The notes under the pieces: generated by a model | The model's input: the letters and a program-made list of their open reading frames with translations, nothing else | The model's database searches: none | Told to the model about the DNA's origin: nothing | In this document: piece after piece, positions 1,453 to 60,917 of the stretch | How positions within the stretch are numbered: the stretch's first letter is position 1 | How the letters are laid out: every line of letters begins with the position of its first letter | NCBI GenBank assembly: GCA_036803205.1 | Contig: DAIRUS010000003.1 | Location: 1 to 61,900, forward strand | DNA from: a bacterium | GTDB taxonomy: Bacteria > Patescibacteriota > Minisyncoccia > Minisyncoccales > GBS-2 | Direction of reading: 5' to 3' | DNA length: 61,900 nucleotides | Position numbers and translations under genes: made by a program

Positions 1453-2433
1453 TTAATTACTTAAATATCTTTTTCCTTCTTGCCAAAAAAAGTCATTTCC
1501 TTTGTTTTTTTGCCAGTACCACCATTCTCCTCCCCAAAAATAAAATGTATTAATTCCTGTTTCGAGAGCGAAATTGATGTTTTCTTTAAATTTTTCTTCA
1601 TCAAGAGTAATTTTTTGTTCTTCCAGAGAGCAATTATAAAGTAAATCTTTACACCAGGGTTCGGCCTGAAACTCTCCGCAAATTACTCTTTTTTTAAATA
1701 ACTTTTCGATTAGATTTTTTCTAAAAGTATAATATAAAGGAGGAAAAGGATATTTTACATATTTACTAATTTCTTTAAAATAAACCCTTCTATGTAAAGT
1801 AATACTTACTATATCCCCTATTTTTGCTGCCGTAAACCAAAAAGAAAATTCTCCGCTGTCTGCAAAAATAATAGGTCGATTGTCTAAAGACCTAACTAGC
1901 TCAATTTCTTTTTTGACCAATTCTTTTGTTATTTCTGGACACTCGCCAAAAGGAAAAAAGGGTTCATTTTCTATTTGCCAGGCAAAAATGGATTTTGAGT
2001 CTTTATGTCTTTCAACAACGTTTTCTATAAATTTTAATAAGTCTTTTTCATAGTTTTTTTTATCAATCCAAGAAGGAAAATGGCATTCTGGCCATCTACC
2101 AGTTTTAATCCCTATCACTAATATTAAACTAACATTTCTTTTTTCTGCTTCTTCTATTTGCCAATCTAAATCAGAAAAATGATATTCGTTTTTCTCTTTT
2201 TCAATTAAATCCCAGTGAGTGATAATCTTCAAATTTTTTGTCTTTAAATCATCTAAAAGGGCTAAATAATTTTCTTTCCAATCTAAACCCAAAAGAGAAG
2301 AATGCTTTTGAGAAAACACAACTCCAAAATTAACTTTTTCTGGTTTTTGAGTAAAGAAAAGAAAAAAACATAAAGAAAGAAAAACCAAAAAAAAGAAAAA
2401 TAAAATAATAATTTTTTTAAATTTAGCTTTCAT
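1453..2433 (-). CDS. membrane-anchored glycoside hydrolase, clan GH-A (GH5-like)
   Basis: N-terminal TM segment (KKIIILFFFFLVFLSLCFFLFF). WQIENEPF matches the N-E-P acid/base motif of clan GH-A (beta/alpha)8 hydrolases. Start moved to the internal ATG at 2433 (MKAKFKK). Confidence 0.5.
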   Translation of the reverse strand: MKAKFKKIIILFFFFLVFLSLCFFLFFTQKPEKVNFGVVFSQKHSSLLGLDWKENYLALLDDLKTKNLKIITHWDLIEKEKNEYHFSDLDWQIEEAEKRNVSLILVIGIKTGRWPECHFPSWIDKKNYEKDLLKFIENVVERHKDSKSIFAWQIENEPFFPFGECPEITKELVKKEIELVRSLDNRPIIFADSGEFSFWFTAAKIGDIVSITLHRRVYFKEISKYVKYPFPPLYYTFRKNLIEKLFKKRVICGEFQAEPWCKDLLYNCSLEEQKITLDEEKFKENINFALETGINTFYFWGGEWWYWQKNKGNDFFWQEGKRYLSN

Positions 2434-3754
2434 TTTTAATAATTTCTTCAATTTTTTTAGTGCCAAATTTTTCTCCCTCAATAAAAGCTTCTAAGGCCAT
2501 TTCAGCCAAATACCCTTTTTCTAACCAATCAAAAAACCATTGGTCGGTATAATTTGGGTCTTCTTGCAAAATTCCAAAACCTGATTTTAAAAGCCATCTC
2601 ATATTAAATTCTTCTTGAGAGCCAATTGGCGGCGCAATAATAATTGGTATTCCTAAAGCAGAATAAAAAGAAAGTTCGGAAGGTTTTGTCCATAGAATAT
2701 CTGTTTTTCTTAGGGCGAGATTAAATTTTTGAAAATAATTTTCAATGTTCTTTTCAAAAATAATTTCAACATTTGAACCAAATAGATTTAATTTTCTAAT
2801 TTGGTTAATAAAATATTCTTTAATTTTCTCTTTAATTCCAACCGCCAAAATCAATTTTACCTCTCGGGATAAAATTTTTTTGGCTAAAGATTTGGCAATT
2901 TTTATTCCTATTTCTTTTTGGGCGCCAGCTCCACCAACCGAAAATAAAATGGTCAATGGGTGATCAGATTTTTCGGCTAACCTGCCTAAGTTTTTTTCAA
3001 TTAATGTTTGATATTTTTCAAAATATTTCTTTTTTGGGTCTAAATTCAAAATCCGATGCTTTAAATCTTCTTTTAAAATCTCCATTTTTTCTGAGCCAAT
3101 ATTTTCTAACGGCAAAGGATAACCGGTTAAAAAAATATTTTCCTCTTTTACTCCATAAAGTTTTAATCTTTCCGTCACCCTTTCATTTGGAGCAAAATAT
3201 TTAATTTTGCTTTCTTTTGGGTTTAAGGGCGCCCAGACTCTTGAAATGTCGGCATCACAAATAATACAGAAAATTTTTCCGGGGTAATTAAAAAACTCGG
3301 CCATAAAAGCCGGTATAAAGAAAGTAGAAATTATTGGCAAATTAGCTCTTGACGCTCCGTTTTTATCCAATTGGCAGGCCTGAAAATTTGTTGCTTTCTG
3401 GACTTTCAATTTATTAATTAAGTCTCTCCCCCACCCTTTTTCAAGAAGAAAATAGATGTTATTTAGAGTAAAATTTGGTTTTGACAAATCCCTTTTGGGA
3501 TAAAAATTAAGAATTTTTTGAAATTGGTTATAAACCGAAAAAACAATTTTGCCAATGAAAGGCGTTTCGGAAAACCGAGATATAAACTCATAAAATTTTC
3601 GTGTCCTCTCCCAAATCTTTCTATCTTGCTCTGGAATTCCTTTATAATCGTTAGCATTAATAATTTCTCCTTCAGCCAAACCTCTAAGAGGAAAGGCCGT
3701 TCTTTGATGTCCATAACCCATATTTACCGAAATAATCCAAGCCCTATTTTGCAT
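2423..3754 (-). CDS. glycosyltransferase, GT28 / MGDG-synthase-like
   Basis: N-terminal ISVNMGYGHQRTA resembles the G-x-G-H motif of MGDG synthase/MurG-type GT-B enzymes. C-terminal VGGAGAQKE nucleotide-sugar loop. Confidence 0.5.
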   Translation of the reverse strand: MQNRAWIISVNMGYGHQRTAFPLRGLAEGEIINANDYKGIPEQDRKIWERTRKFYEFISRFSETPFIGKIVFSVYNQFQKILNFYPKRDLSKPNFTLNNIYFLLEKGWGRDLINKLKVQKATNFQACQLDKNGASRANLPIISTFFIPAFMAEFFNYPGKIFCIICDADISRVWAPLNPKESKIKYFAPNERVTERLKLYGVKEENIFLTGYPLPLENIGSEKMEILKEDLKHRILNLDPKKKYFEKYQTLIEKNLGRLAEKSDHPLTILFSVGGAGAQKEIGIKIAKSLAKKILSREVKLILAVGIKEKIKEYFINQIRKLNLFGSNVEIIFEKNIENYFQKFNLALRKTDILWTKPSELSFYSALGIPIIIAPPIGSQEEFNMRWLLKSGFGILQEDPNYTDQWFFDWLEKGYLAEMALEAFIEGEKFGTKKIEEIIKNES

Positions 3755-4430: not shown

Positions 4431-4467
4431 ACTGCTGCGATATTTTTGCGACCGCTAAAAGAATGAG
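4431..4467. repeat. downstream copy of the 37-bp direct repeat bracketing gene 1 (core GCGACCGC)
   Basis: ACTGCTGCGATATTTTTGCGACCGCTAAAAGAATGAG versus ACTGCTACAAATTCTTTGCGATCGCAAAAAGAAAGTG. Confidence 0.6.
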
Positions 4468-4505
4468 GCTGTTTGAAAAGAAACAGATATTACATAAATG
4501 AAGTT

Positions 4506-5999
4506 TTACCTTAAAAAGCTTGGGCGAGTGAATTTTTCTTGAAGTCGCCAGATGATTAGACTTAAAATTAAATAAAAGACTATTAGCCAAAACCAGGAAA
4601 TCTCCAGCGATTTAAAGGCAAAAGGAAACCCAGAAAAAAAGTCAACGATTTTTATTAAATAAGTGAGTAAAAACCAAACGGGAAAGGAAAAAATCCAGCC
4701 CAGGGGTTGCCAAATCGCTCCCAAAAAGGCAAAGATAAAACCAAAAAGTATAATCCAATAAAGTCCAGGAACAATGAGGATGTTAGTAATCGGAGCAATA
4801 AAAGAAACATAGCCAAAATTATAAATCAAGATTGGCAAGGTGAAAACCTGAGCAGATAGAGTTATTGCCAAAATACTTCTTAATTGGAAGTGGTTTGGGA
4901 TCTTCCGGAGCCAAATTTGAAAAATTGGCAAAAGATAAATTATTCCCAGCATGGCCAAAAAAGAAAGCTGAAAACCAACGTCTAGCTTCAAAAGCAAGGG
5001 ATTTTGAGCTAACATTATAACAGCAGCAAAGACAATTGTGCGAGAGGAAACGTTCATTCTGCCTAAATATTGGGCTAAAAGAAAAAGGCCGCCCATAATT
5101 CCAGCCCTAACGGCTGAAGGTTGAAGTCCGGTTATAATTATAAATAGAACAATTAAAATAATTGAAAAATAAAAGGCTTGATGTCGCCAAAAACCTAACC
5201 CAATTAAGATGGTCATTAAAATACTTGTTACGATTGTGACATGAAGTCCGGAGACAGCGGTAATGTGTCTTACACCAGTCACATTTAGTTTCTGATTTAA
5301 ATCCTCGGAGATTTGTTTTTTATCCCCTAAAATCATTGCTCCTAAAATTGAACTCTGAGGTGGAGACAAATTTTGATAAATAACCTCTCTCAATTTATTT
5401 TTAAATTTCAAGATTTTTGCATACACAAAACTTCCTTTATTTTTTTCAATTATCTCAATTTTTGGCCAATCCATTACTGAATAGATTCCGTCTTTTTTTA
5501 AATAATCTTTATAGTTAAAACCTTCAATATCTTCTAAGGGGGTCTTTAGTTTTCCAAAAATTTTCAATTTATCGCCATAATGATATTCTGGATAGCGATT
5601 TGTAGTTATTAAAACCTTGCCAAAAATTAGCGAAGAACTGTCTCCCGCTAAAACTTGAGTTGTTTTAACTGTTAGTTTTTGGCTTTTTTCTCTCATCTCT
5701 GGCTCAGTTGAGACTATTCCGATTAGGGTGATTTTTTGATCTAAGTCATTAAATTTCCTTAATTCGTCATTCTTAATTCTCAATTCTTCAATATTGTGTC
5801 TCCAAATCCCTAAAACTAAAAACAAGAGAGAAAAGCCAACAATGACCAATTTTTTATATCTCCAGCAAGCCAAGATTAATAAAATTCCTAAAGTTAAAAA
5901 ACTCAATATTATTAGTTGAGAAATTTTAAAAAATGAACTCAAAAAAATCCCTCCAATAAAAGAGAGGCAAAAAAAGTAAAATATTTTCGAGGGAGTCAT
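4506..5999 (-). CDS. comEC: competence protein ComEC/Rec2 (DUF4131 + competence domain, no beta-lactamase domain)
   Basis: 497 aa. N-terminal TM helices, an OB-like segment (KLTVKTTQVLAGD...GDKLKIFGKLKTP), then a multi-pass channel domain with SGLHVT. Confidence 0.75.
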   Translation of the reverse strand: MTPSKIFYFFCLSFIGGIFLSSFFKISQLIILSFLTLGILLILACWRYKKLVIVGFSLLFLVLGIWRHNIEELRIKNDELRKFNDLDQKITLIGIVSTEPEMREKSQKLTVKTTQVLAGDSSSLIFGKVLITTNRYPEYHYGDKLKIFGKLKTPLEDIEGFNYKDYLKKDGIYSVMDWPKIEIIEKNKGSFVYAKILKFKNKLREVIYQNLSPPQSSILGAMILGDKKQISEDLNQKLNVTGVRHITAVSGLHVTIVTSILMTILIGLGFWRHQAFYFSIILIVLFIIITGLQPSAVRAGIMGGLFLLAQYLGRMNVSSRTIVFAAVIMLAQNPLLLKLDVGFQLSFLAMLGIIYLLPIFQIWLRKIPNHFQLRSILAITLSAQVFTLPILIYNFGYVSFIAPITNILIVPGLYWIILFGFIFAFLGAIWQPLGWIFSFPVWFLLTYLIKIVDFFSGFPFAFKSLEISWFWLIVFYLILSLIIWRLQEKFTRPSFLR

Positions 6000-22606: not shown

Positions 22607-22694
22607 GCCGCGGTGCTGGAATTGGCAGACAGGATGGACTCAAAATCCATTGTCCCAAAAGGACGTGTGGGTTCAACTCCCACCTGCGGCACCA
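22607..22694 (+). tRNA. tRNA-Leu(CAA), type II with long variable arm, CCA encoded
   Basis: Acceptor GCCGCGG/CTGCGGC. Anticodon stem ATGGA/TCCAT with loop CTCAAAA. Variable arm GTCCCAAAAGGAC. T-arm GTGGGTTCAACTCCCAC. 3' ACCA. Confidence 0.9.
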
Positions 22695-52314: not shown

Positions 52315-53322
52315 TTAAAAAATGTCAAAAAGTTTAACCACAAACAAAATATAAATTAATAAAAACATTGAACCTTCCCAAATACTGATCCGACGGGTAA
52401 TTCCGGAAATAATCAAAAGCAAAGTGGCAATAACCATAAAGGGAAAACCGATATAAAAAGTTAAAGAATCAACAATTAAAGGCTTAAACAAACCAGACAA
52501 ACCCATCACTGTTAGGCTATTAAAGACATTGGAGCCAAAAACATTACCCAAAGCAATTTCATACTTTTTCTGCCAGGCTGCTCTAACTGAAACGATCAGT
52601 TCGGGAAGAGAGGTGCCAACTGCTACTCCCAAAATAGTAATCAAGGAAGTGGTTATTTTTAAAATTTCAGACAATTTCAAAACTGAATCGATTAGATAAT
52701 TAGCACCTAAAATCAAACTGGCTATTCCTAAAATCAGAAAAAGCAAGGTTTTAAATTCAATTTTTTCTACTTTTTCCCTCACCTCTCTCCGGTCTACTCT
52801 TGAAGGTAAAACTTCGAAAATTTCTCCCGGCACCATTTCTTCTGGTAATAGCTTCTCTGGCACTTCTGATCTCTGGGCGATAGTATAAAAAAGATAGACT
52901 AAAAAGGCAATTAAAAGCAAAAATCCCTCTTGCCAAACAACCTTTCCGTCTAAAAGAATAAAGCCAAATAAAACCGTAGTTGAAGCCAGTAGGGGTAAAT
53001 CAACGTCAATTAAGCTTCTTCTGACCGCTAATCTCCTCCCCACCACCGCTGATAATCCAACAATTAAAAGAATATTGGCAATGTTTGAACCAATCACATT
53101 AGCTGCCACGATTTCCGTTGCTTCTTTAAAAACAGCTGTTAAAGAAGAAGCCAGTTCGGGAAAAGAAGTGCCAATAGCAACAATAGTGACACCAATAATA
53201 AAAGGAGAAATCTTTAGAGCTAGTCCTATTTTTTCTGAACTTTCAACAAACCAATCTGCGCCTTTTACTAAAATAATTAGGCTTAAGACAAAAATTAATG
53301 ACCAGAAAATTAAAATTGCCAT
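52315..53322 (-). CDS. Ca2+/cation antiporter (CaCA, YrbG-like)
   Basis: Two alpha-repeats, GTSFPELASS and GTSLPELIVS. Confidence 0.8.
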   Translation of the reverse strand: MAILIFWSLIFVLSLIILVKGADWFVESSEKIGLALKISPFIIGVTIVAIGTSFPELASSLTAVFKEATEIVAANVIGSNIANILLIVGLSAVVGRRLAVRRSLIDVDLPLLASTTVLFGFILLDGKVVWQEGFLLLIAFLVYLFYTIAQRSEVPEKLLPEEMVPGEIFEVLPSRVDRREVREKVEKIEFKTLLFLILGIASLILGANYLIDSVLKLSEILKITTSLITILGVAVGTSLPELIVSVRAAWQKKYEIALGNVFGSNVFNSLTVMGLSGLFKPLIVDSLTFYIGFPFMVIATLLLIISGITRRISIWEGSMFLLIYILFVVKLFDIF

Positions 53323-53323
53323 T

Positions 53324-56300
53324 TTAAATTTTCTTTATCGCTAAGTGTAAAGTTTGACCTTCAATTTTTATTTCTTTTTCCAGATCAAAAACAATTTTTT
53401 CTTTTTCCGAATAAAAATCTTTTATCTTTGCCTGAAGAGCAATGAGTTTCTGATTTTTAAGTAAAATTTCAGCCAAACTTCCCTCTGTGGAATATCTTAC
53501 CATAATTTTATCTTTTGGTCTAAATCCGGCCTCTTTTCTCATTGATTGAATGTAGCGAATAACTTCTCGCAAAATCCCTTCTTCTTTCAGTTCGGAAGTA
53601 ATTTTTGTATCCAATTCTATTTCTTTTTTAATTCTTCCATCAAAAACTATTTCTTTTACATTCACTTCCTCTTTTAATAATTTTAATAATTTATCATCAA
53701 ACCTAAGCTTTAAATCTTTTATTTTTAGCCTTGAAAGGGGCTGCCTCACTTTTATTTTTGCATTTGACCTTTCAGCTAAAACTAAAGTTGCCATTTCCCT
53801 GATTTTTTCCATTTTCTTTTCCAAATTCTTATCAATCAACTCTTTGTTTGCTTTTGACCAGTCAACTAAATGGATGGAGGTTGGTAGTCGAAAGTTAAAA
53901 CTCAAAAGTTTTTGATAAATGAATTCGCTTAAAAATGGGATAAATGGAGCGGATAATTTGCTGATGGTCAAAAGGACAAATCCTAAAGTTTGAGAAACTA
54001 TTTCAAGTTCTTTTTTTGTTTCTGGTTTTTGAAACCTTTCCCTTGACCTCCTAATATACCAAAGAGAAAGCTCATCAGCAACAAATTTTTCAATTAATCT
54101 TGCCCCTTTAGTTATATCGTAGTTGTCTAAACTTTCAGTAACATCTTGAATTAAAGTATTTAGTTTCGAAATAATCCATTTGTCTAAAACATTTTCCCCT
54201 CTCAGAGGATAAGACTTTCTTATTATTCTCCTAAAATTGGAAGTGGTCTTAGCATAGGTTTGGAAAAATAAAAAGCAATTCCAAAAAATGATTATGAATT
54301 TCCTTAAACTTTCTTCAATATCTTTTTCCGAAAATAGTTTTGCCTCGCCTGGTTGATTAATAGTGTAAAAATACCATCTGACAGCATCGACTCCGTATTT
54401 TTCAATAATATACCAGGGGTCAACTACGTTACCTTTTGACTTAGACATTTTTTCTCCCTTTTCATCTAAAACATGACCCAAAGAAATAACATTTTTGTAA
54501 CTCGGACCAAAGTCCAAAAGAGTAGAAATTGCCAATAGAGTATAAAACCAACCCCGGGTTTGGTCTATTCCTTCGGAGATATAGTCAGCGGGAAATAATA
54601 TTTTTTTAATTAACTTTCGATAGTTTTGGATTTTAAGCTCGAGGTTTTTGGTTTTAAAACAAGAAAGTGGGAAATGGGCTTGGGCAAAAGGCATTGCTCC
54701 AGAGTCAAACCAACAATCAACCACTTCTGAGACTCTTGCCATTAAATTGCCGCACTTTGGACAATAAAATCTTACCTCATCAATATACGGCCGATGAAAA
54801 TCTAATTCTCCTTTCTCATTCATTGGTAAAAATTTAAATTCTAATCTTCTTAACTCGCCATTTTTAATAATGCCCTTTTTCTTTTTTTCCGCAACTAATT
54901 CTTTTTTTGTTTGTCCCTTCAAGGCTCCTGCCAACAGCCAGAAAGGATCACCATGACCAACAATTAAGATTTTTTTATCCTGATATTTTTTATCAATTTC
55001 TTTTAAAAATTCAGTCATTCTCATTTGGCAATGAAGCCAACTTTCTCCTTTTGGTAACTTTTTTTCAAAGCGCTCTTCAGAAATTGGAAAATCCCGAAAA
55101 TATTCTTCTTTTGGTCGACCATGGTAAATGCCCAAATTAATATCTCTTAATCTTCTGTCGAAATTGACTTTTAATTTCAACTCTTTGGCTATAATTTCAG
55201 CAGTTTGTTTTGTCCGGAAAAAATCGGAAGAATAAATCAAATCAATCCCTAATTTTTTCAATTTCGGAATCACTCTTTTTATTTGCTCAACTCCCTCTTC
55301 TGTTAAACCAATGGGTTCTTTTTCTGGAAAAGGATAGGTCAGGTCTTTTTTTCTTGTTTGATAAATTGTTTGGCCATGTCTTAAGAAAAAATATTGATTG
55401 GTCGAAAATTTTTGAGAAAGTAAATCTCTTTTTCCGCCAATGACTTCTAAGTATTGGCAACTTTGGCATTGCCAAATTGGCAAAGGTGTCCCCCAATACC
55501 TTTCTCTCGATAGGGCCCAATCTTTTATTTCTTTTAACCATTCACCAAATCTCCCTTCTTTTAAATGTCCTGGAATCCAATTGATTTTTTGATTATTTTT
55601 GATTAAGTTTTCCTTCAGGGCGGTCATTCTAATAAACCAACTTTTTTTAGCATAATAAAGAAGGTGGCTGCGGCATCTCCAGCAAAAAGGATAATCGTGT
55701 TCGTACAATTCTTCCTTAAAAAGCAAGTTTCTCTCTTTGAGGTCTTCAATAATTAGTGGATCAGCTTTTTTGACGAAAAGTCCGGCCCATTTTTTGATAT
55801 CAAGCCTAAACCTTCCTTCTTCATCAACTGTTAACAAAATTGGAAACTCCGGCCTATTCTCCAATCGGTAATTTTCATTTACCAATTTTATTAATGCCAA
55901 GTCTTCCTCTCCAAAAGCCGGGGCAATATGAACCAAGCCTGTCCCCTCTTCCAATGAAACAAAATCAGCCGGAAGAGTTTTGTAAATTGTTATTCCCACC
56001 CGGGATTCAACCGGATAAAGAGGTTGATAGTAAAGATTAACCAAATCTTTTCCTTGAAACTCTTTTACAATTTCTCCTTGAATACCTGTAGCTTCAATCC
56101 GCTCTTTAGCCAGAATTAAAAACTCCTGGCCAATTTTTAATTTGGCATAAACGAAATTTTCATTTAGAGCAATGGCTACATTTCCTGGTAAAGTCCAAGG
56201 GGTGGTTGTCCAAACTAAAAGAGAGGTGTTTTTGAATTCCGGATTTAAAATGGGAAATTTAACATAGATTGAAGGCTCCTTTATTTTTTCGTAACCCAAA

Positions 56301-56866
56301 GCTAGCTCGTGACTAGAAAGAGAGGTTTGACACCGCGGACAATAAGGAACAACTTTAAAATCTTGATATAACAGTCCTTTTTGCCAAATGGTTTTTAAAA
56401 TCCACCAGACGCTTTCAATGTATTCAGGGGTATAAGTAATATAGGGGTCTTTCATGTCTAGCCAAAAACCAATCCTTTCGGTCAATTTCTCCCAATCTTT
56501 TTTGTATTGCCAGACAGATTTTTTACATTCTTCGTTGAATTTGGCAATGCCATATTTTTCTATCTCTCTTTTTGATTTCAATCCTAATTTTTTTTCAATT
56601 TCCAATTCAACCGGCAAGCCGTGAGTATCCCAACCCGCCCTTCTTAAAACTCTAAATCCTTGCATCGTTTTGTAGCGACAAATAATATCTTTAAAAACCC
56701 GACTCAAAACATGATGGATTCCCGGCTTGGCATTAGCCGTCGGTGGCCCCTCATAAAAAACAAAATCAATTTTCTTTTTTCTTCTTTTGATGCTATTTTC
56801 AAAAATTCTATTTTTCTTCCAAAACCTAAGTACTTTTTCCTCTAATTTTGGAAAGTTTATCTCCAT
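53324..56866 (-). CDS. ileS: isoleucyl-tRNA synthetase with an internal histidine-phosphatase-like domain
   Basis: PPTANAKPGIHHV (HIGH-like), CP1 editing region, WGTPLPIW, KMSKSKGN, anticodon-binding domain. 1180 aa, including an insert of about 196 aa (FLRHGQT...VGHGD). Confidence 0.9.
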   Translation of the reverse strand: MEINFPKLEEKVLRFWKKNRIFENSIKRRKKKIDFVFYEGPPTANAKPGIHHVLSRVFKDIICRYKTMQGFRVLRRAGWDTHGLPVELEIEKKLGLKSKREIEKYGIAKFNEECKKSVWQYKKDWEKLTERIGFWLDMKDPYITYTPEYIESVWWILKTIWQKGLLYQDFKVVPYCPRCQTSLSSHELALGYEKIKEPSIYVKFPILNPEFKNTSLLVWTTTPWTLPGNVAIALNENFVYAKLKIGQEFLILAKERIEATGIQGEIVKEFQGKDLVNLYYQPLYPVESRVGITIYKTLPADFVSLEEGTGLVHIAPAFGEEDLALIKLVNENYRLENRPEFPILLTVDEEGRFRLDIKKWAGLFVKKADPLIIEDLKERNLLFKEELYEHDYPFCWRCRSHLLYYAKKSWFIRMTALKENLIKNNQKINWIPGHLKEGRFGEWLKEIKDWALSRERYWGTPLPIWQCQSCQYLEVIGGKRDLLSQKFSTNQYFFLRHGQTIYQTRKKDLTYPFPEKEPIGLTEEGVEQIKRVIPKLKKLGIDLIYSSDFFRTKQTAEIIAKELKLKVNFDRRLRDINLGIYHGRPKEEYFRDFPISEERFEKKLPKGESWLHCQMRMTEFLKEIDKKYQDKKILIVGHGDPFWLLAGALKGQTKKELVAEKKKKGIIKNGELRRLEFKFLPMNEKGELDFHRPYIDEVRFYCPKCGNLMARVSEVVDCWFDSGAMPFAQAHFPLSCFKTKNLELKIQNYRKLIKKILFPADYISEGIDQTRGWFYTLLAISTLLDFGPSYKNVISLGHVLDEKGEKMSKSKGNVVDPWYIIEKYGVDAVRWYFYTINQPGEAKLFSEKDIEESLRKFIIIFWNCFLFFQTYAKTTSNFRRIIRKSYPLRGENVLDKWIISKLNTLIQDVTESLDNYDITKGARLIEKFVADELSLWYIRRSRERFQKPETKKELEIVSQTLGFVLLTISKLSAPFIPFLSEFIYQKLLSFNFRLPTSIHLVDWSKANKELIDKNLEKKMEKIREMATLVLAERSNAKIKVRQPLSRLKIKDLKLRFDDKLLKLLKEEVNVKEIVFDGRIKKEIELDTKITSELKEEGILREVIRYIQSMRKEAGFRPKDKIMVRYSTEGSLAEILLKNQKLIALQAKIKDFYSEKEKIVFDLEKEIKIEGQTLHLAIKKI

Positions 56867-57009: not shown

Positions 57010-57033
57010 TAAATATGGAGAAAGGTGGATTTT

Positions 57034-57606
57034 ATGAGTAAATATAAATATTATTTTAAAAAACCTAGGTCTGAAATTGTGAAAGATATTTTGAGTTGGT
57101 TAATGATTGGTGGGGCGGTTTATATTGCCGCTTCTTCCCCTTATTTTATTCACAATTTATTAAAAGCTTTTAAAAGAGGAAGACTATATCCTGAAAAGAA
57201 AGTTTATAATACATTTTATAAACTTCGAAAACAAGGGTGCATTAAAATTGAAAAAAAAGGAAAACAAATCTATATCTCTTTAACCGAAGAAGGAAAAAGA
57301 AAGGTTGGTTGGCTTCAAATAGATAGTTTGAAAATAAAAAAACCAAAAAAATGGGATAGAAAGTGGAGGATGGTTATTTTTGATATTTCTCAATTGAAAA
57401 AAATTTATCGAGAGGCTTTAAGGGGAAAATTGAAGGAGCTTGGCTTTTATCCTTTTCAAAAAAGTGTTTGGGTCTATCCTTATCCTTGTCAAGATGAAAT
57501 CGCTCTCCTTAGAGATTTTTTTGGTTTAACCTATAAAGAACTTTGTCTTATTACTGCTGAAAATATAGAGAAGGCGGATTTTTTACATAAAATTTTTAAA
57601 CTTTAA
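57034..57606 (+). CDS. PaaX-like protein: hydrophobic N-terminal segment + winged-helix + Cas2-like domain, paralog 2
   Basis: Same architecture as 3849-4430 (KKWDRKWRMVIFDI...LGFYPFQKSVWV). ATG at 57034 preceded by GGAGAAAGGTGG. The track start at GTG 57025 is also possible. Confidence 0.6.
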   Translation: MSKYKYYFKKPRSEIVKDILSWLMIGGAVYIAASSPYFIHNLLKAFKRGRLYPEKKVYNTFYKLRKQGCIKIEKKGKQIYISLTEEGKRKVGWLQIDSLKIKKPKKWDRKWRMVIFDISQLKKIYREALRGKLKELGFYPFQKSVWVYPYPCQDEIALLRDFFGLTYKELCLITAENIEKADFLHKIFKL

Positions 57607-57817: not shown

Positions 57818-59434
57818 TCACATCCTTTCTGGCGCGGAAATTCCTATTAGAGAAAGAGTCTTTTTTAATACAATTTTAGTGGCTAAAATTAAAGACAGTC
57901 TTGCTTCCATTAAATCCTTATTTTCTGAAATCACTTTACAATCTCGATAAAATTGGTGAAAATTTTTAGCTAAATCAAGAAGGTATTGGGGAATCCTCTG
58001 TAATTGATAATCTTTAGCGCTATCTTCAATAATTTCCGGAAATCGAATAAGTTGTTTAATAAGGGTTAGTTCGCTGGGATGATTTAATAATTTCAAATTT
58101 TTAACTCTCGTTTTCCCTTTTGCGCTTTCCATCTTGGATTTTTTAGATTTTTTAAAGATGCTACATATTCTAGCGTGGGCATATTGAACATAATAAATTG
58201 GATTTTTCTCTGACTGTTCTTTTGCCAATTCTAAATCAAATTCCATTTGGGCATTGAGAGACTTTGTCAAATAAAAGAACCTAGCTACATCTAATCCTAC
58301 TTCATCAATCAATTCTTCCAAAGTAACTATTTCTCCTTTTCTCTTTGAAATCTTTCCCTTTTTTAATCTTACCAGCTGGCAGATTAAGATGTTTAAATCT
58401 CCCTTGTAGTTAAGAATTTTTGCTATTGCTTTAATTTTTGGCACGTGACCCTGATGATCTGCCCCCCAGATATTAATAATTTTTTTAAAACCCCTATCAA
58501 ATTTATCTTTATGATAAGCAATATCAGATAAAAAATAGGTTGGCTCGCCGTTTTGTCTAACAACGACCTCATCTTTTGGCGCGCCAAATTCTGAAATTTT
58601 TAACCATTCTGCCTCTTCTTTCTCATAAATTAAACCTTTCTTTTTTAACCAATGATAAATTTTTTTAATTTTATTTTTTTGATACAAATCTTCTTCCGAA
58701 ATCCAACTATCAAATTTAATCCGCAGTTTATTTTTAATAAAATTTTTAATATCTTTTTGAACCTCTTGAGCCAATAAATAACCTGCTTTCCCCGGGTTAG
58801 AAATTTTCTCCAGTTTTTCTTTGAGTTTCGTTATCCGGGATTTAAGATAATCATTTAAATAAACGACTCCTTTCCCTAAAGCAGTTTGACCCAAGGTTTT
58901 AATCTGAGTGTTCACTTTGGCATCATTAATATAATATTCACGGACTGTCTTATATCCCGCCCACTCCAAAACATTGGCTAAGGTATCGCCAAAAAATGCT
59001 CCTCGACCATTGCCAATATGAAGGGGACCAGTGGGATTAGCGGAAATAAATTCAACCTGGATTTTTCGATTTCTACCAATTTTTAATCTGCCAAATTTCT
59101 TCCCTTGTTTTAGAATCTCTCCAACCTGTTTTTGTAAATATTCCTTTGAAAGAAAAAAATTAATAAATCCTGGTTTAGCCACTTCAATTTTCTCAAAGAA
59201 CCTTTCGGTTTTTAAGTTTTTTAATTCTTCTACCACCCGATAAGCTATGTCCATCGGATTTTTTTTTATCTCCTTAGTAATTGTCATAGCGATATTAGTC
59301 GCATAATCTCCATGAATTTTCTCTTCTGAATGCTCAACCTGAATTTCCGGCATCTCAACTCCAGGCAAAACCCTTTCTTTTTGAAGCTTTTGTACTGATT
59401 TTTCAATTAAATTTTTAATCTTTTGACAAATCAT
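57818..59434 (-). CDS. argS: arginyl-tRNA synthetase
   Basis: SANPTGPLHIGNGR (HIGH). C-terminal DALR anticodon-binding domain ending ...GISAPERM. Confidence 0.9.
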   Translation of the reverse strand: MICQKIKNLIEKSVQKLQKERVLPGVEMPEIQVEHSEEKIHGDYATNIAMTITKEIKKNPMDIAYRVVEELKNLKTERFFEKIEVAKPGFINFFLSKEYLQKQVGEILKQGKKFGRLKIGRNRKIQVEFISANPTGPLHIGNGRGAFFGDTLANVLEWAGYKTVREYYINDAKVNTQIKTLGQTALGKGVVYLNDYLKSRITKLKEKLEKISNPGKAGYLLAQEVQKDIKNFIKNKLRIKFDSWISEEDLYQKNKIKKIYHWLKKKGLIYEKEEAEWLKISEFGAPKDEVVVRQNGEPTYFLSDIAYHKDKFDRGFKKIINIWGADHQGHVPKIKAIAKILNYKGDLNILICQLVRLKKGKISKRKGEIVTLEELIDEVGLDVARFFYLTKSLNAQMEFDLELAKEQSEKNPIYYVQYAHARICSIFKKSKKSKMESAKGKTRVKNLKLLNHPSELTLIKQLIRFPEIIEDSAKDYQLQRIPQYLLDLAKNFHQFYRDCKVISENKDLMEARLSLILATKIVLKKTLSLIGISAPERM

Positions 59435-59532: not shown

Positions 59533-59982
59533 GTGAAAATAATTTCTGAAAATAAAAAGGCTTATTTTAATTATCAAATCGAGGAAATGCTTGAGGCGGG
59601 AATTGTTCTGATTGGTCAGGAGGTAAAATCTTTAAAAACAAGAGGGGTAAATTTGGCAGGCTCTTATGTCGTTTTAAAGGGCGAAGAAGTTTTTTGGGTC
59701 GGAGCTAAAATTGCTCCTTATCAACCAAAAAATGCACCATCGAATTATAATCCCGAAAGAACAAGAAAGCTTTTATTGAAAAAATCAGAGATTAAATATC
59801 TCATCGGCAAATCAAAGCAAAAGGGCTTGACTTTAATTCCTTTAAGAGTATATACTAAAAGAGGGAAAATAAAGCTGGAGTTTGGAATAGCCAGAGGGAA
59901 AAGAAGGGTAGACAAAAGAGAGTTAATTAAAAAAAGAGAAATAGAGAGGGAAATTCAAAGAGCATTAAAACAAAAACTCTGA
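59533..59982 (+). CDS. smpB: SsrA-binding protein
   Basis: NKKAYFNYQIEE, GIVLIGQEVKSL, LLLKKSEI. GTG start. Immediately upstream of tmRNA. Confidence 0.9.
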   Translation: MKIISENKKAYFNYQIEEMLEAGIVLIGQEVKSLKTRGVNLAGSYVVLKGEEVFWVGAKIAPYQPKNAPSNYNPERTRKLLLKKSEIKYLIGKSKQKGLTLIPLRVYTKRGKIKLEFGIARGKRRVDKRELIKKREIEREIQRALKQKL

Positions 59983-60043
59983 AAGAAAACAAAGAAAGTA
60001 CATAATAAAAATAAAAAGATTTAAATTCTTATCAAAACAGTTT

Positions 60044-60402
60044 GGGGATGATTGGAATCGATGAAGAGTTGACTAAAATAGGCAAACCGAGTATTCTCAA
60101 ATCTCGTTAAGCTTTGAGAAAAAGAATAAGTGCCAACTTATTCAGAGAACCAGCATTAGCCTACGCTTAATGGCTGATGCCATCGAGGTTGGTGACTCTC
60201 GCTAACCGACCACGGTGTTATAACCAGCGAGATAAATAGTTCTTTTGAAAATCCAAAAAGAACTATTAAGAGTTCTTAGGATTTAAGTATAGAAATTTTT
60301 GTCCAATTTTTAATTCTATACCTATTGACTAAATTGGACTAAGCTTGTAGAACTATTTTAGAAAAACTCTTCAGACGTGGGTTCAATCCCCGCCATCTCC
60401 AC
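60044..60402 (+). ncRNA. ssrA: tmRNA
   Basis: 5' GGGGATG pairs with 3' CATCTCC, including a G3-U pair. T-arm GTGGGTTCAATCCCCGC. Tag reading frame 60132-60170 encodes ANLFREPALAYA then a stop. Confidence 0.85.
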
Positions 60403-60407
60403 TAAAT

Positions 60408-60917
60408 TTGTTAAAAAAACCTTTAGTCAACAATCAAATAAGGGCAAGCGAGGTAAGAGTGATTGATGAAGAGGGAAAACAATTAGGCGTTTTACCAGTG
60501 GCTGAAGCGCTCCGATTTGCCAAGGAGCGCAATTTAGATTTAATCCAAGTTACGGAAAAGGTAGAACCTCCTGTTTGTAAAATAATGGATTATGGAAAAT
60601 ACCTTTATCGACTTGAAAAAAAAGAGAGACAAGCCAGGCTGAAAATGACCAGCGGAATCAAAGGGATAAGGTTGGGGTTCAACATTTCTTTGCACGATTT
60701 AGAAACCAGGGCAAATCAAGCCGAGAAATTTTTAAAAAAAGGAAAAAAAATTAAAATTGAGATAATTCTCAAAGGTCGAGAAAAAGCTCATGGAGAGTTA
60801 GCAAAAGAAAAAATTAAACAATTTCTGGAAATTTTAGGAAAAAAAATTTCAATAAAGATTGAAAGAGAATTGAAAAGAGAACCAAGAGGCTTTACGATGA
60901 TTATCTCGAAATCTTAG
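60408..60917 (+). CDS. infC: translation initiation factor IF-3
   Basis: NNQIRASEVRVIDEEGKQLGV, LDLIQV, PPVCKIMDYGKY. Non-ATG (TTG) start, as is usual for infC. Confidence 0.9.
   Translation: MLKKPLVNNQIRASEVRVIDEEGKQLGVLPVAEALRFAKERNLDLIQVTEKVEPPVCKIMDYGKYLYRLEKKERQARLKMTSGIKGIRLGFNISLHDLETRANQAEKFLKKGKKIKIEIILKGREKAHGELAKEKIKQFLEILGKKISIKIERELKREPRGFTMIISKS

Follow-up and report, generated by a model that had tools for sequence, protein, structure and literature searches.

A PhoE/PspA-like histidine phosphatase inserted into the CP3 zinc knuckle of the isoleucyl-tRNA synthetase of Parcubacteria, and its free-standing counterpart in front of ileS

Aminoacyl-tRNA synthetases (aaRS) are among the best-studied enzymes, and the domains that have been added to them usually serve a known role in editing, tRNA binding or signalling. 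What, then, is a second active site, from an unrelated class of enzymes, doing within the catalytic domain of a synthetase that is essential to the cell? This question is raised by the ileS gene on contig DAIRUS010000003.1 of the bacterial genome assembly GCA_036803205.1, the first 61,900 nucleotides of which are the stretch of DNA analyzed here (hereafter the window). Judged by its sequence and its predicted fold, the segment inserted into the isoleucyl-tRNA synthetase (IleRS) encoded by this gene is a complete PhoE/PspA-like histidine phosphatase of branch 1, located at about residues 490-677. The arrangement is conserved in a large branch of the Candidate Phyla Radiation, where it is interchangeable with a separate gene in front of ileS. 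No known step of isoleucine charging requires a phosphomonoesterase, and the answer would lead either to a new accessory reaction of tRNA charging, be it end repair, detoxification or the removal of a product, or to an unambiguous example of an enzyme carried as a passenger by an essential gene.

The host enzyme itself is ordinary in most respects. Its gene is a single open reading frame with an ATG start codon that encodes 1180 amino acids without interruption, just as an earlier reading of the letters without database searches (the sequence-only reading) had stated. Pfam detects tRNA-synt_1 in two stretches with His_Phos_1 between them, followed by Anticodon_1 and DUF5915, and the match to the NCBIfam model TIGR00392 (ileS; 877.9 bits versus a cut-off of 621.4) is likewise split in two by the insert. 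The protein matches the Thermus thermophilus IleRS (PDB accession code 1ILE) with an E-value of 8e-261; its C-terminus has the type-2 organization, with PF19302 (DUF5915) at residues 1005-1179 and no C-terminal treble-clef zinc-binding domain, and its nearest matches are the type-2 MupA/MupB-like enzymes (810-820 bits, under their exception cut-offs). On the strength of these comparisons we classify the host protein as a type-2 IleRS, the eukaryote/archaea-like type of the bacterial enzyme. All canonical parts of the T. thermophilus enzyme and of the Priestia megaterium IleRS2 (8C8U) are present and collinear in it: the Rossmann fold, the CP core with its CxxC/CxxC pairs, the editing domain, CP2, CP3 with the second CxxC/CxxC set, KMSKS, the anticodon-binding domain and the DUF5915-type C-terminus. 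It departs from known type-2 enzymes in two points, the roughly 203 residues that replace the nine-residue tip of the CP3 knuckle, and the first class-I motif, which reads GIHH in place of HxGH, whereas KMSKS is present. The GXHH variant is functional in IleRS2 and confers mupirocin hyper-resistance (PMC10485003). Across 80 fused relatives, Gly49, His51 and His52 are nearly invariant. A further open reading frame of 84 amino acids within the region of the insert (55287-55541, minus strand) lies in a different frame and was treated as spurious.

The borders of the insert follow from the alignment with 1ILE, in which residues 2-484 of the window protein correspond to residues 7-478 of the Thermus enzyme, and residues 688-1035 to residues 488-818; about 203 residues (485-687) thus stand in place of nine. 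The sequence-only reading had placed the insert at residues 491-686, which map exactly to nucleotides 54809-55396, and the peptide strings that it quoted, including LDFHRPYIDEVRFYCPKCGNLMARVSEVVDCWFDSG, are all present in the frame; the location was right, and the extent has to be widened slightly, to nucleotides 54806-55414. The two Cys pairs (C467/C470 and C702/C705) of the CP3 zinc knuckle flank the insert, as do the active-site motifs WGTPLP and DCWFDSG of the catalytic domain. The junctions of the insert read QKFSTN/QYFF and NEKGE/LDFHRPY (the slash marks the border), and the GC content is continuous across both of them (0.33-0.35). CP3 carries a zinc-binding motif in the T. thermophilus IleRS, and its topology differs in each solved IleRS structure (PMC7191050); the graft has therefore been made into the tip of the CP3 zinc knuckle, an element that is peripheral and variable. 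All lineages share one insertion point, and IleRS enzymes without the insert retain the CP3 Cys pairs together with a short loop like that of Thermus. A fused IleRS from Kaiserbacteria (L078, about positions 4450-5200, to be compared with 54752-55468 of the window) lacks the CP3 cysteine ligands on either side of the insert; hence, the zinc knuckle is not required for holding the phosphatase. An intein or another self-excising insertion was considered and rejected, as the segment has neither a Cys/Ser start nor an HN-Cys/Ser/Thr end, and its sole Pfam match is His_Phos_1.

The identity of the inserted domain was assessed by profile searches and structure prediction. PF00300 matches with an E-value of 3.3e-33 in the whole protein and of 8e-35 in the insert alone (115-121 bits versus a gathering cut-off of 21.7), and the histidine-phosphatase identity proposed from the letters is thereby confirmed. 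The AlphaFold2 model of the domain alone reaches a predicted local distance difference test score (pLDDT) of 94, and within the model of the full-length IleRS (pLDDT 78; predicted template-modelling score, pTM, 0.55) the domain is the best-predicted part, at 89-96. Foldseek aligns it to 6S2Q, 4IJ5, 4PZ9, 1H2E and 1EBB with template-modelling (TM) scores of 0.73-0.80 and a probability of 1.00; the neighbours comprise the mycobacterial hydrolase 6S2Q, PspA (4IJ5), GpgP (4PZ9), the riboflavin HFP 9MMH, PhoE (1H2E/1EBB) and CobC, all ahead of the mutases, and a sequence search with the insert returned the same small branch-1 phosphatases. The profile score, the RHG/Arg/Glu/His set and the α/β fold of the predicted model, which matches solved members, all place the domain in branch 1 of the superfamily, and the claim that a complete phosphatase fold occupies the CP3 knuckle stands up to this analysis. 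The broad-specificity phosphatase PhoE/YhfR (1EBB, 1H2E), the metal-independent phosphoserine phosphatase PspA (4IJ5), GpgP Rv2419c (4PZ9) and CobC (6NRU, 6E4B) share with it the fold (TM 0.73-0.80), the Arg-His/Arg/Glu/His set and 24-26% identity; in contrast to these enzymes, the window phosphatase resides inside an aaRS or is encoded next to ileS, and it scores below every subfamily threshold. Assignments to individual subfamilies were tried and rejected for the cofactor-dependent phosphoglycerate mutase dPGM (TIGR01258, 22 bits versus 81.7; NF038349, 81 versus 225; GpmB, NF002901, 68 versus 261), for the α-ribazole phosphatase CobC (TIGR03162, 87 bits versus 162.9; NF011580, 51 versus 250), for PspA (NF045917, 66 bits versus 350) and for the phosphohistidine phosphatase SixA (TIGR00249, 28.6 bits versus 74.5).

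Has the inserted phosphatase kept its catalytic residues? The sequence-only reading expected so, and the Arg/His/Arg/Glu/His pentad predicted for the active site is indeed present in the window protein, its five residues (R496, H497, R551, E608 and H638) being invariant in 80 close relatives. Among 341 copies of 33-70% identity, the pentad RHREH is intact in 146 of the 151 inserted or fused copies and in about 184 of the 190 free-standing ones. The exceptions are mostly incomplete sequences, and true substitutions were seen in the copies P0154 (H497A), L007 (E608D) and P0260 (domain 1, E608Q). Its retention in 146 of 151 inserted homologues argues that the domain is under selection for catalysis, and we consider it very probable that the inserted domain is an active phosphatase.

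The fusion is neither a peculiarity of one genome nor a product of its assembly. The identical 1180-amino-acid protein is found on three contigs, one of which comes from run SRR5214706, assembled independently by Logan, and shows the same genes downstream, so that the chimeric junctions that might have undone the sequence-only reading can be set aside. Its call for a survey of relatives is likewise answered, since all 120 best homologues (60-67% identity, 1027-1237 amino acids; drawn from JGI, ENA, NCBI and Logan) possess PF00300 together with the IleRS domains, and the fusion junction was detected in at least 188 GTDB species in a scan with one genome per species. The named taxa are Nealson-, Wolfe-, Kaiser-, Nomura-, Lloyd- and Niyogibacteria and Paceibacterales, all within the Parcubacteria (Paceibacteria); a few fused records are labelled Pacearchaeota, Spirochaetia or Humimicrobiaceae, and their IleRS sequences group among those of Parcubacteria. 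In 78 of 80 fetched loci the N-terminal part, the insert and the C-terminal part share one uninterrupted frame, the other two being cut or frameshifted. Public databases name these homologues merely 'isoleucine--tRNA ligase' or 'class I tRNA ligase family protein'. That the insert is real and conserved is thus practically certain, and it is a lineage-wide trait of Parcubacteria.

A substantial number of relatives possess the same phosphatase as a separate protein. Among the best 150 phmmer hits obtained with the insert, 75 representatives are embedded in IleRS and about 69 are free-standing proteins of 180-217 amino acids, which begin with M-K-L-K-N-x-Y-F-x-L-R-H-G, finish with G-E-L-R-K-L and reach 59% identity to the insert (66% in the case of P0291). 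In all five long contigs that were looked up, the phosphatase gene lies directly upstream of an insert-less ileS gene (942-966 codons) on the same strand, with a gap of -11 to +58 nucleotides, and downstream of argS, at times with a Pterin_4a gene between. An independent sample of 80 metagenome loci comprised 26 fused ones; 46 of the 54 non-fused loci have the free-standing gene directly upstream of ileS, three have one gene between phosphatase and ileS, and five were short or otherwise not classed. Two copies, be they fused or split, were never found in one locus, the surroundings of 106 fused ileS genes contain no additional phosphatase gene, and tblastn detected no second, free-standing phosphatase in the window. 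The linkage of the free-standing gene to ileS persists across lineages whose IleRS proteins are just 40-50% identical. In fused loci argS mostly abuts ileS directly, and the gene order of the window (IF3, tmRNA, SmpB, argS, ileS, RecO, DUF7619) equals that of the split loci L084, L086 and L088. The window locus is therefore orthologous to the split loci, and the phosphatase has in effect been shifted by about 1.4 kb, from the front of ileS to codon 485.

Inserted and free-standing forms differ in one physicochemical property. When the free-standing copies of L081-L089 and P0122-P0389 were compared with the inserts, the median net charge per residue came to +0.121 in the former, which puts them at the 90th percentile of the neighbouring open reading frames or higher in four of five loci compared, and to +0.038, near the local median, in the inserted form. 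The free protein is very basic and the tethered one ordinary, and the free protein therefore seems to need an affinity of its own for an acidic partner, which could be a tRNA or an acidic protein surface.

How did the two states arise from each other? In a neighbour-joining tree of IleRS from which the insert had been removed, the split loci L084 and L088 fall within the fused clade, while L081 and L083/L086 are found elsewhere. Parsimony over 100 bootstrap trees required two (27%) or three (73%) changes between the fused and the split state and never a single one, and the quartet that unites L084 with the window against L047 and L078 has 100% support; according to these trees, the fused and split states have switched at least twice. 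Host and guest do not share one history. The IleRS proteins of the window and L036 are 75% identical and their inserts 41%, whereas the window and L001 have IleRS proteins of about 53% and inserts of 70% identity, and the window insert clusters inside the free-standing clade. One formal route for the relocation is a tandem duplication that takes in the phosphatase gene and the 5' portion of ileS, with deletions thereafter. Duplication does occur here, as can be gleaned from the IleRS variants P0176, P0202 and P0260 with two to four histidine-phosphatase domains; P0176 has four of them in tandem after the N-terminal IleRS part, and in P0202 a second copy separates the catalytic domain from the anticodon-binding one. 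What we find is the repeated relocation of a whole open reading frame to one internal site, an unusual domain insertion of which both states can be observed at orthologous loci.

The same phosphatase clade has also joined other proteins. In P0130 it forms the C-terminus of an ArgRS (48% identity to the window insert), a type of fusion that was absent from the 80 metagenome loci, and in four clusters (P0200 and P0390-P0392) it is fused to TsaC (Sua5/YrdC). One TsaC fusion (locus L090, positions 1964-3292) is situated beside genes for the CCA-adding enzyme, TGT, a queuosine-salvage protein and TruD, away from ileS. The TsaC proteins of these bacteria are also found fused to MGMT, TruB, 2H phosphoesterase, NUDIX, GNAT and MPG domains.

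Modules that occur either within a synthetase or as separate proteins have well-known counterparts in the INS domain of ProRS versus YbaK/ProX and in the editing domain of AlaRS versus AlaX, each pair serving the same synthetase. The window phosphatase appears to share this cis/trans duality by analogy; however, these editing modules are aminoacyl-tRNA deacylases whose role is understood, whereas the module studied here is a phosphatase by fold, and nothing known ties it to the chemistry of aminoacylation. Another branch-1 phosphatase joined to a nucleic-acid enzyme for an unclear reason is the RNase H/CobC-type acid phosphatase (Rv2228c, SCO2299; NF005567), but in that protein the two enzymes are fused end to end and not by insertion into an aaRS, and the match to this model (64-68 bits) is far below its cut-off of 326. 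Additional enzymatic domains in IleRS have a precedent, because NCBIfam curates an 'isoleucine--tRNA ligase, N-acetyltransferase domain-containing' (NF040702); its extra domain is a GNAT and not a phosphatase, and the window protein scores 282 bits versus a cut-off of 1999. Full-text literature searches directed at an aaRS-histidine phosphatase fusion found no description of one, in agreement with the sequence-only reading, which knew of none, and an analysis from 2026 of 96,219 IleRS sequences mentions neither a phosphatase nor Patescibacteria or the Candidate Phyla Radiation. Neither partner is unusual in itself, the host being a type-2 IleRS and the guest a branch-1 histidine phosphatase; it is their combination, its site and its split alternative that are new.

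What the phosphatase does can at present be approached from its genomic setting. We suggest that the branch-1 phosphatase inserted in frame into the CP3 zinc-knuckle loop is the operon partner of ileS, and that it would work together with IleRS, in cis where it is inserted and in trans where it is separate. To this explanation, an IleRS fused to its own operon partner, we assign a probability of about 0.5 as the best one overall. The fusion, the strict synteny and the mutual exclusion of the two forms together constitute a strong genomic signal of functional coupling, and we regard it as probable that the phosphatase is functionally dedicated to IleRS. The next step is the most speculative one: the substrate might be a phosphomonoester that IleRS itself handles, the first choice being a phosphate-blocked 3' end of tRNA(Ile) (a 2'/3'-phosphate or a 3'-pyrophosphate of the kind added by toxSAS) that would be cleared before charging. 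A link to RNA is hinted at by the very basic free form, by the rare cases in which this clade is joined to ArgRS or TsaC, and by the tRNA-related genes that surround one of the TsaC fusions. Phosphate-blocked CCA ends do occur in bacteria, since toxSAS toxins pyrophosphorylate them (10.1101/2021.04.30.441581, PMC11559606). Nevertheless, a tRNA 3' end as the substrate is, in our estimate, unlikely, and distinctly unlikely is the boldest version, in which the protein would be a cofactor dedicated to IleRS and would repair, on the synthetase, tRNA(Ile) 3' ends that carry a phosphate block (a 2'/3'-phosphate, a cyclic phosphate once it has been opened, or a pyrophosphate added by a toxin). In that case, Parcubacteria would possess an aaRS with a built-in tRNA end-repair or anti-toxin activity, a module that shuttles repeatedly between an upstream gene and a fixed internal site of ileS.

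Several observations weigh against a phosphatase dedicated to IleRS or to tRNA ends, and need to be carefully considered. The nearest characterized relatives (PhoE, PspA, GpgP, CobC and the riboflavin HFP) act on small molecules, and the insert reaches none of the curated NCBIfam subfamily cut-offs (dPGM, CobC, PspA, SixA, GpmB). To our knowledge, no enzyme of the histidine-phosphatase family dephosphorylates RNA ends. The papers on IleRS structure that were consulted, PMC7191050 among them, do not state a contact between CP3 and tRNA. The discordant phylogenies of host and insert argue against a tightly co-evolved interface. The ArgRS fusion probably arose by read-through, because argS and the phosphatase gene are neighbours, and the TsaC fusion is a weak clue, because TsaC joins many unrelated domains. 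Finally, PADLOC returned no defence hits for the insert or the free-standing protein, and an association with anti-phage defence was rejected on this ground.

Much of this would be expected if the domain were a housekeeping small-molecule phosphatase of the PhoE/PspA/CobC type (acting, for instance, on phosphoserine, a sugar phosphate or a nucleotide) that travels as a passenger in the permissive CP3 loop without any coupling to aminoacylation, its co-transcription with and fusion to ileS merely reflecting that streamlined genomes tolerate or favour fusions. This is the main rival of the explanation that we prefer, and we judge it possible without being likely. Its closest solved relatives are all small-molecule phosphatases, CP3 is peripheral and variable, with a topology that changes from one IleRS to another, discordant trees are what a loosely coupled passenger would produce, and promiscuous fusions, such as those of TsaC, are common in these bacteria. 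A mere passenger does not readily account, however, for a linkage as specific and persistent as the one found in all five look-ups and in 46 of 54 non-fused loci directly upstream of ileS, for repeated insertion at one internal site in preference to fusion end to end, or for the strict exclusivity of the cis and trans forms; moreover, the difference in charge suggests that the free form needs an affinity of its own for a partner.

An alternative in which the domain is coupled to the chemistry of the synthetase is the removal of products: the phosphatase would hydrolyze the pyrophosphate (PPi) or AMP released at the adenylate site and thereby pull the formation of Ile-AMP forward. Such a role would fit the position of the insert within the catalytic domain, between WGTPLP and DCWFDSG, and the fact that all three fusion partners (IleRS, ArgRS and TsaC) convert ATP to AMP and PPi. 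PPi, however, is formed by all 20 aaRS and by many other enzymes, yet the linkage is specific for ileS; of the other fusions, the one to ArgRS follows from the adjacency of the two genes and the one to TsaC carries little weight, and we know of no branch-1 histidine phosphatase that acts as a pyrophosphatase. We therefore consider product removal improbable.

The superfamily also includes the protein phosphatases SixA, PGAM5 and Sts-1, and kinase toxins of the HipA/HipT type phosphorylate the class-I enzymes GltX and TrpS; a small domain of about 187 residues within the catalytic domain might thus strip an inhibitory phosphate, placed for example in the KMSKS region by such a toxin, from IleRS or from a partner protein. 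The neighbours of the domain in sequence and fold are small-molecule phosphatases, though, with SixA at 28.6 bits versus 74.5, and there is no kinase toxin in the conserved neighbourhood (five split loci and the window) and no PADLOC hit, which makes a protein phosphatase quite improbable.

A catalytically dead appendage that keeps its fold for structural reasons or for RNA binding would be in line with the few substituted copies (P0154, L007 and domain 1 of P0260), but is very hard to reconcile with the fact that about 97% of the more than 340 divergent copies retain the whole pentad, while the domain overall is conserved at 33-70%. A chimeric assembly or a gene-calling artefact at 54809/55396 is effectively refuted by the same junctions in the independent assembly of another run, by their presence in 120 of 120 closest homologues and in frame in 78 of 80 GTDB loci, and by the lack of a compositional break.

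Table 1. Coordinates of ileS, its inserted phosphatase domain and neighbouring genes in the window (numbering of the forward strand)
Feature	Position	Strand	Basis
ileS, type-2 IleRS with internal phosphatase domain	53324..56866	-	Open reading frame, Pfam, NCBIfam, 1ILE alignment
IleRS N-terminal part, aa 1-484: first Rossmann half, CP core, editing domain, CP2, start of CP3 with first Cys pair	55415..56866	-	Aligns to T. thermophilus IleRS 7-478
Class-I signature motif, non-canonical GXHH form, G49-I-H-H52	56711..56722	-	1ILE alignment
First Cys pair of CP3 zinc knuckle, C467-Q-S-C470	55457..55468	-	Invariant in 80 relatives
Inserted segment, aa 485-687: short linkers and equivalent of a whole histidine-phosphatase open reading frame	54806..55414	-	Gap in T. 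thermophilus IleRS alignment; 59-66% identity to free-standing proteins of ~193 aa over full length
His_Phos_1 (PF00300) core match, aa 493-656	54899..55390	-	E 3.3e-33
R496-H497-G498, RHG motif with predicted phospho-accepting histidine	55373..55381	-	Alignments of relatives
R551, predicted second arginine of phosphate pocket	55214..55216	-	151/151 inserted, 190/190 free-standing
E608, predicted general acid/base	55043..55045	-	149/151 inserted, 189/190 free-standing
H638, predicted second catalytic histidine	54953..54955	-	151/151 inserted, 188/190 free-standing
Second Cys pair of CP3 zinc knuckle, C702-P-K-C705	54752..54763	-	Residue mapping
IleRS C-terminal part, aa 688-1180 and stop: second Rossmann half, KMSKS, anticodon-binding domain, DUF5915	53324..54805	-	Pfam, 1ILE alignment
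KMSKS, aa 806-810	54437-54451	-	IleRS C-terminal part
PaaX_M/Cas2-like open reading frame, 193 aa, weak winged-helix match	57025..57606	+	Opposite strand, gap between argS and ileS
argS (ArgRS, 538 aa), conserved upstream neighbour in argS-(phosphatase)-ileS cluster	57818..59434	-	Synteny

Some features of the neighbourhood deserve mention in their own right (Table 1). The PaaX_M-like open reading frame occupies the exact spot at which the split relatives have their free-standing phosphatase gene. Next to argS, the genes for SmpB (59533-59982), tmRNA (60044-60404) and IF3 (60408-60917) are adjacent to each other (59533-60917, plus strand), and the tag peptide encoded by the tmRNA gene reads ANLFREPALAYA; SmpB and IF3 are found next to argS in the same order in split loci. 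Directly downstream of ileS, the window carries a gene of the Na+/Ca2+ exchanger family (52315-53322, minus strand) that is absent from this position in L084, L086 and L088. In two split loci (L081, 11462-15569; L083, 11488-15603), HAMP, histidine-kinase and two response-regulator genes come after ileS, and in the other split loci RecO does. The only tRNA gene in the window is that of tRNA-Leu(CAA), at 22607-22694 on the plus strand.

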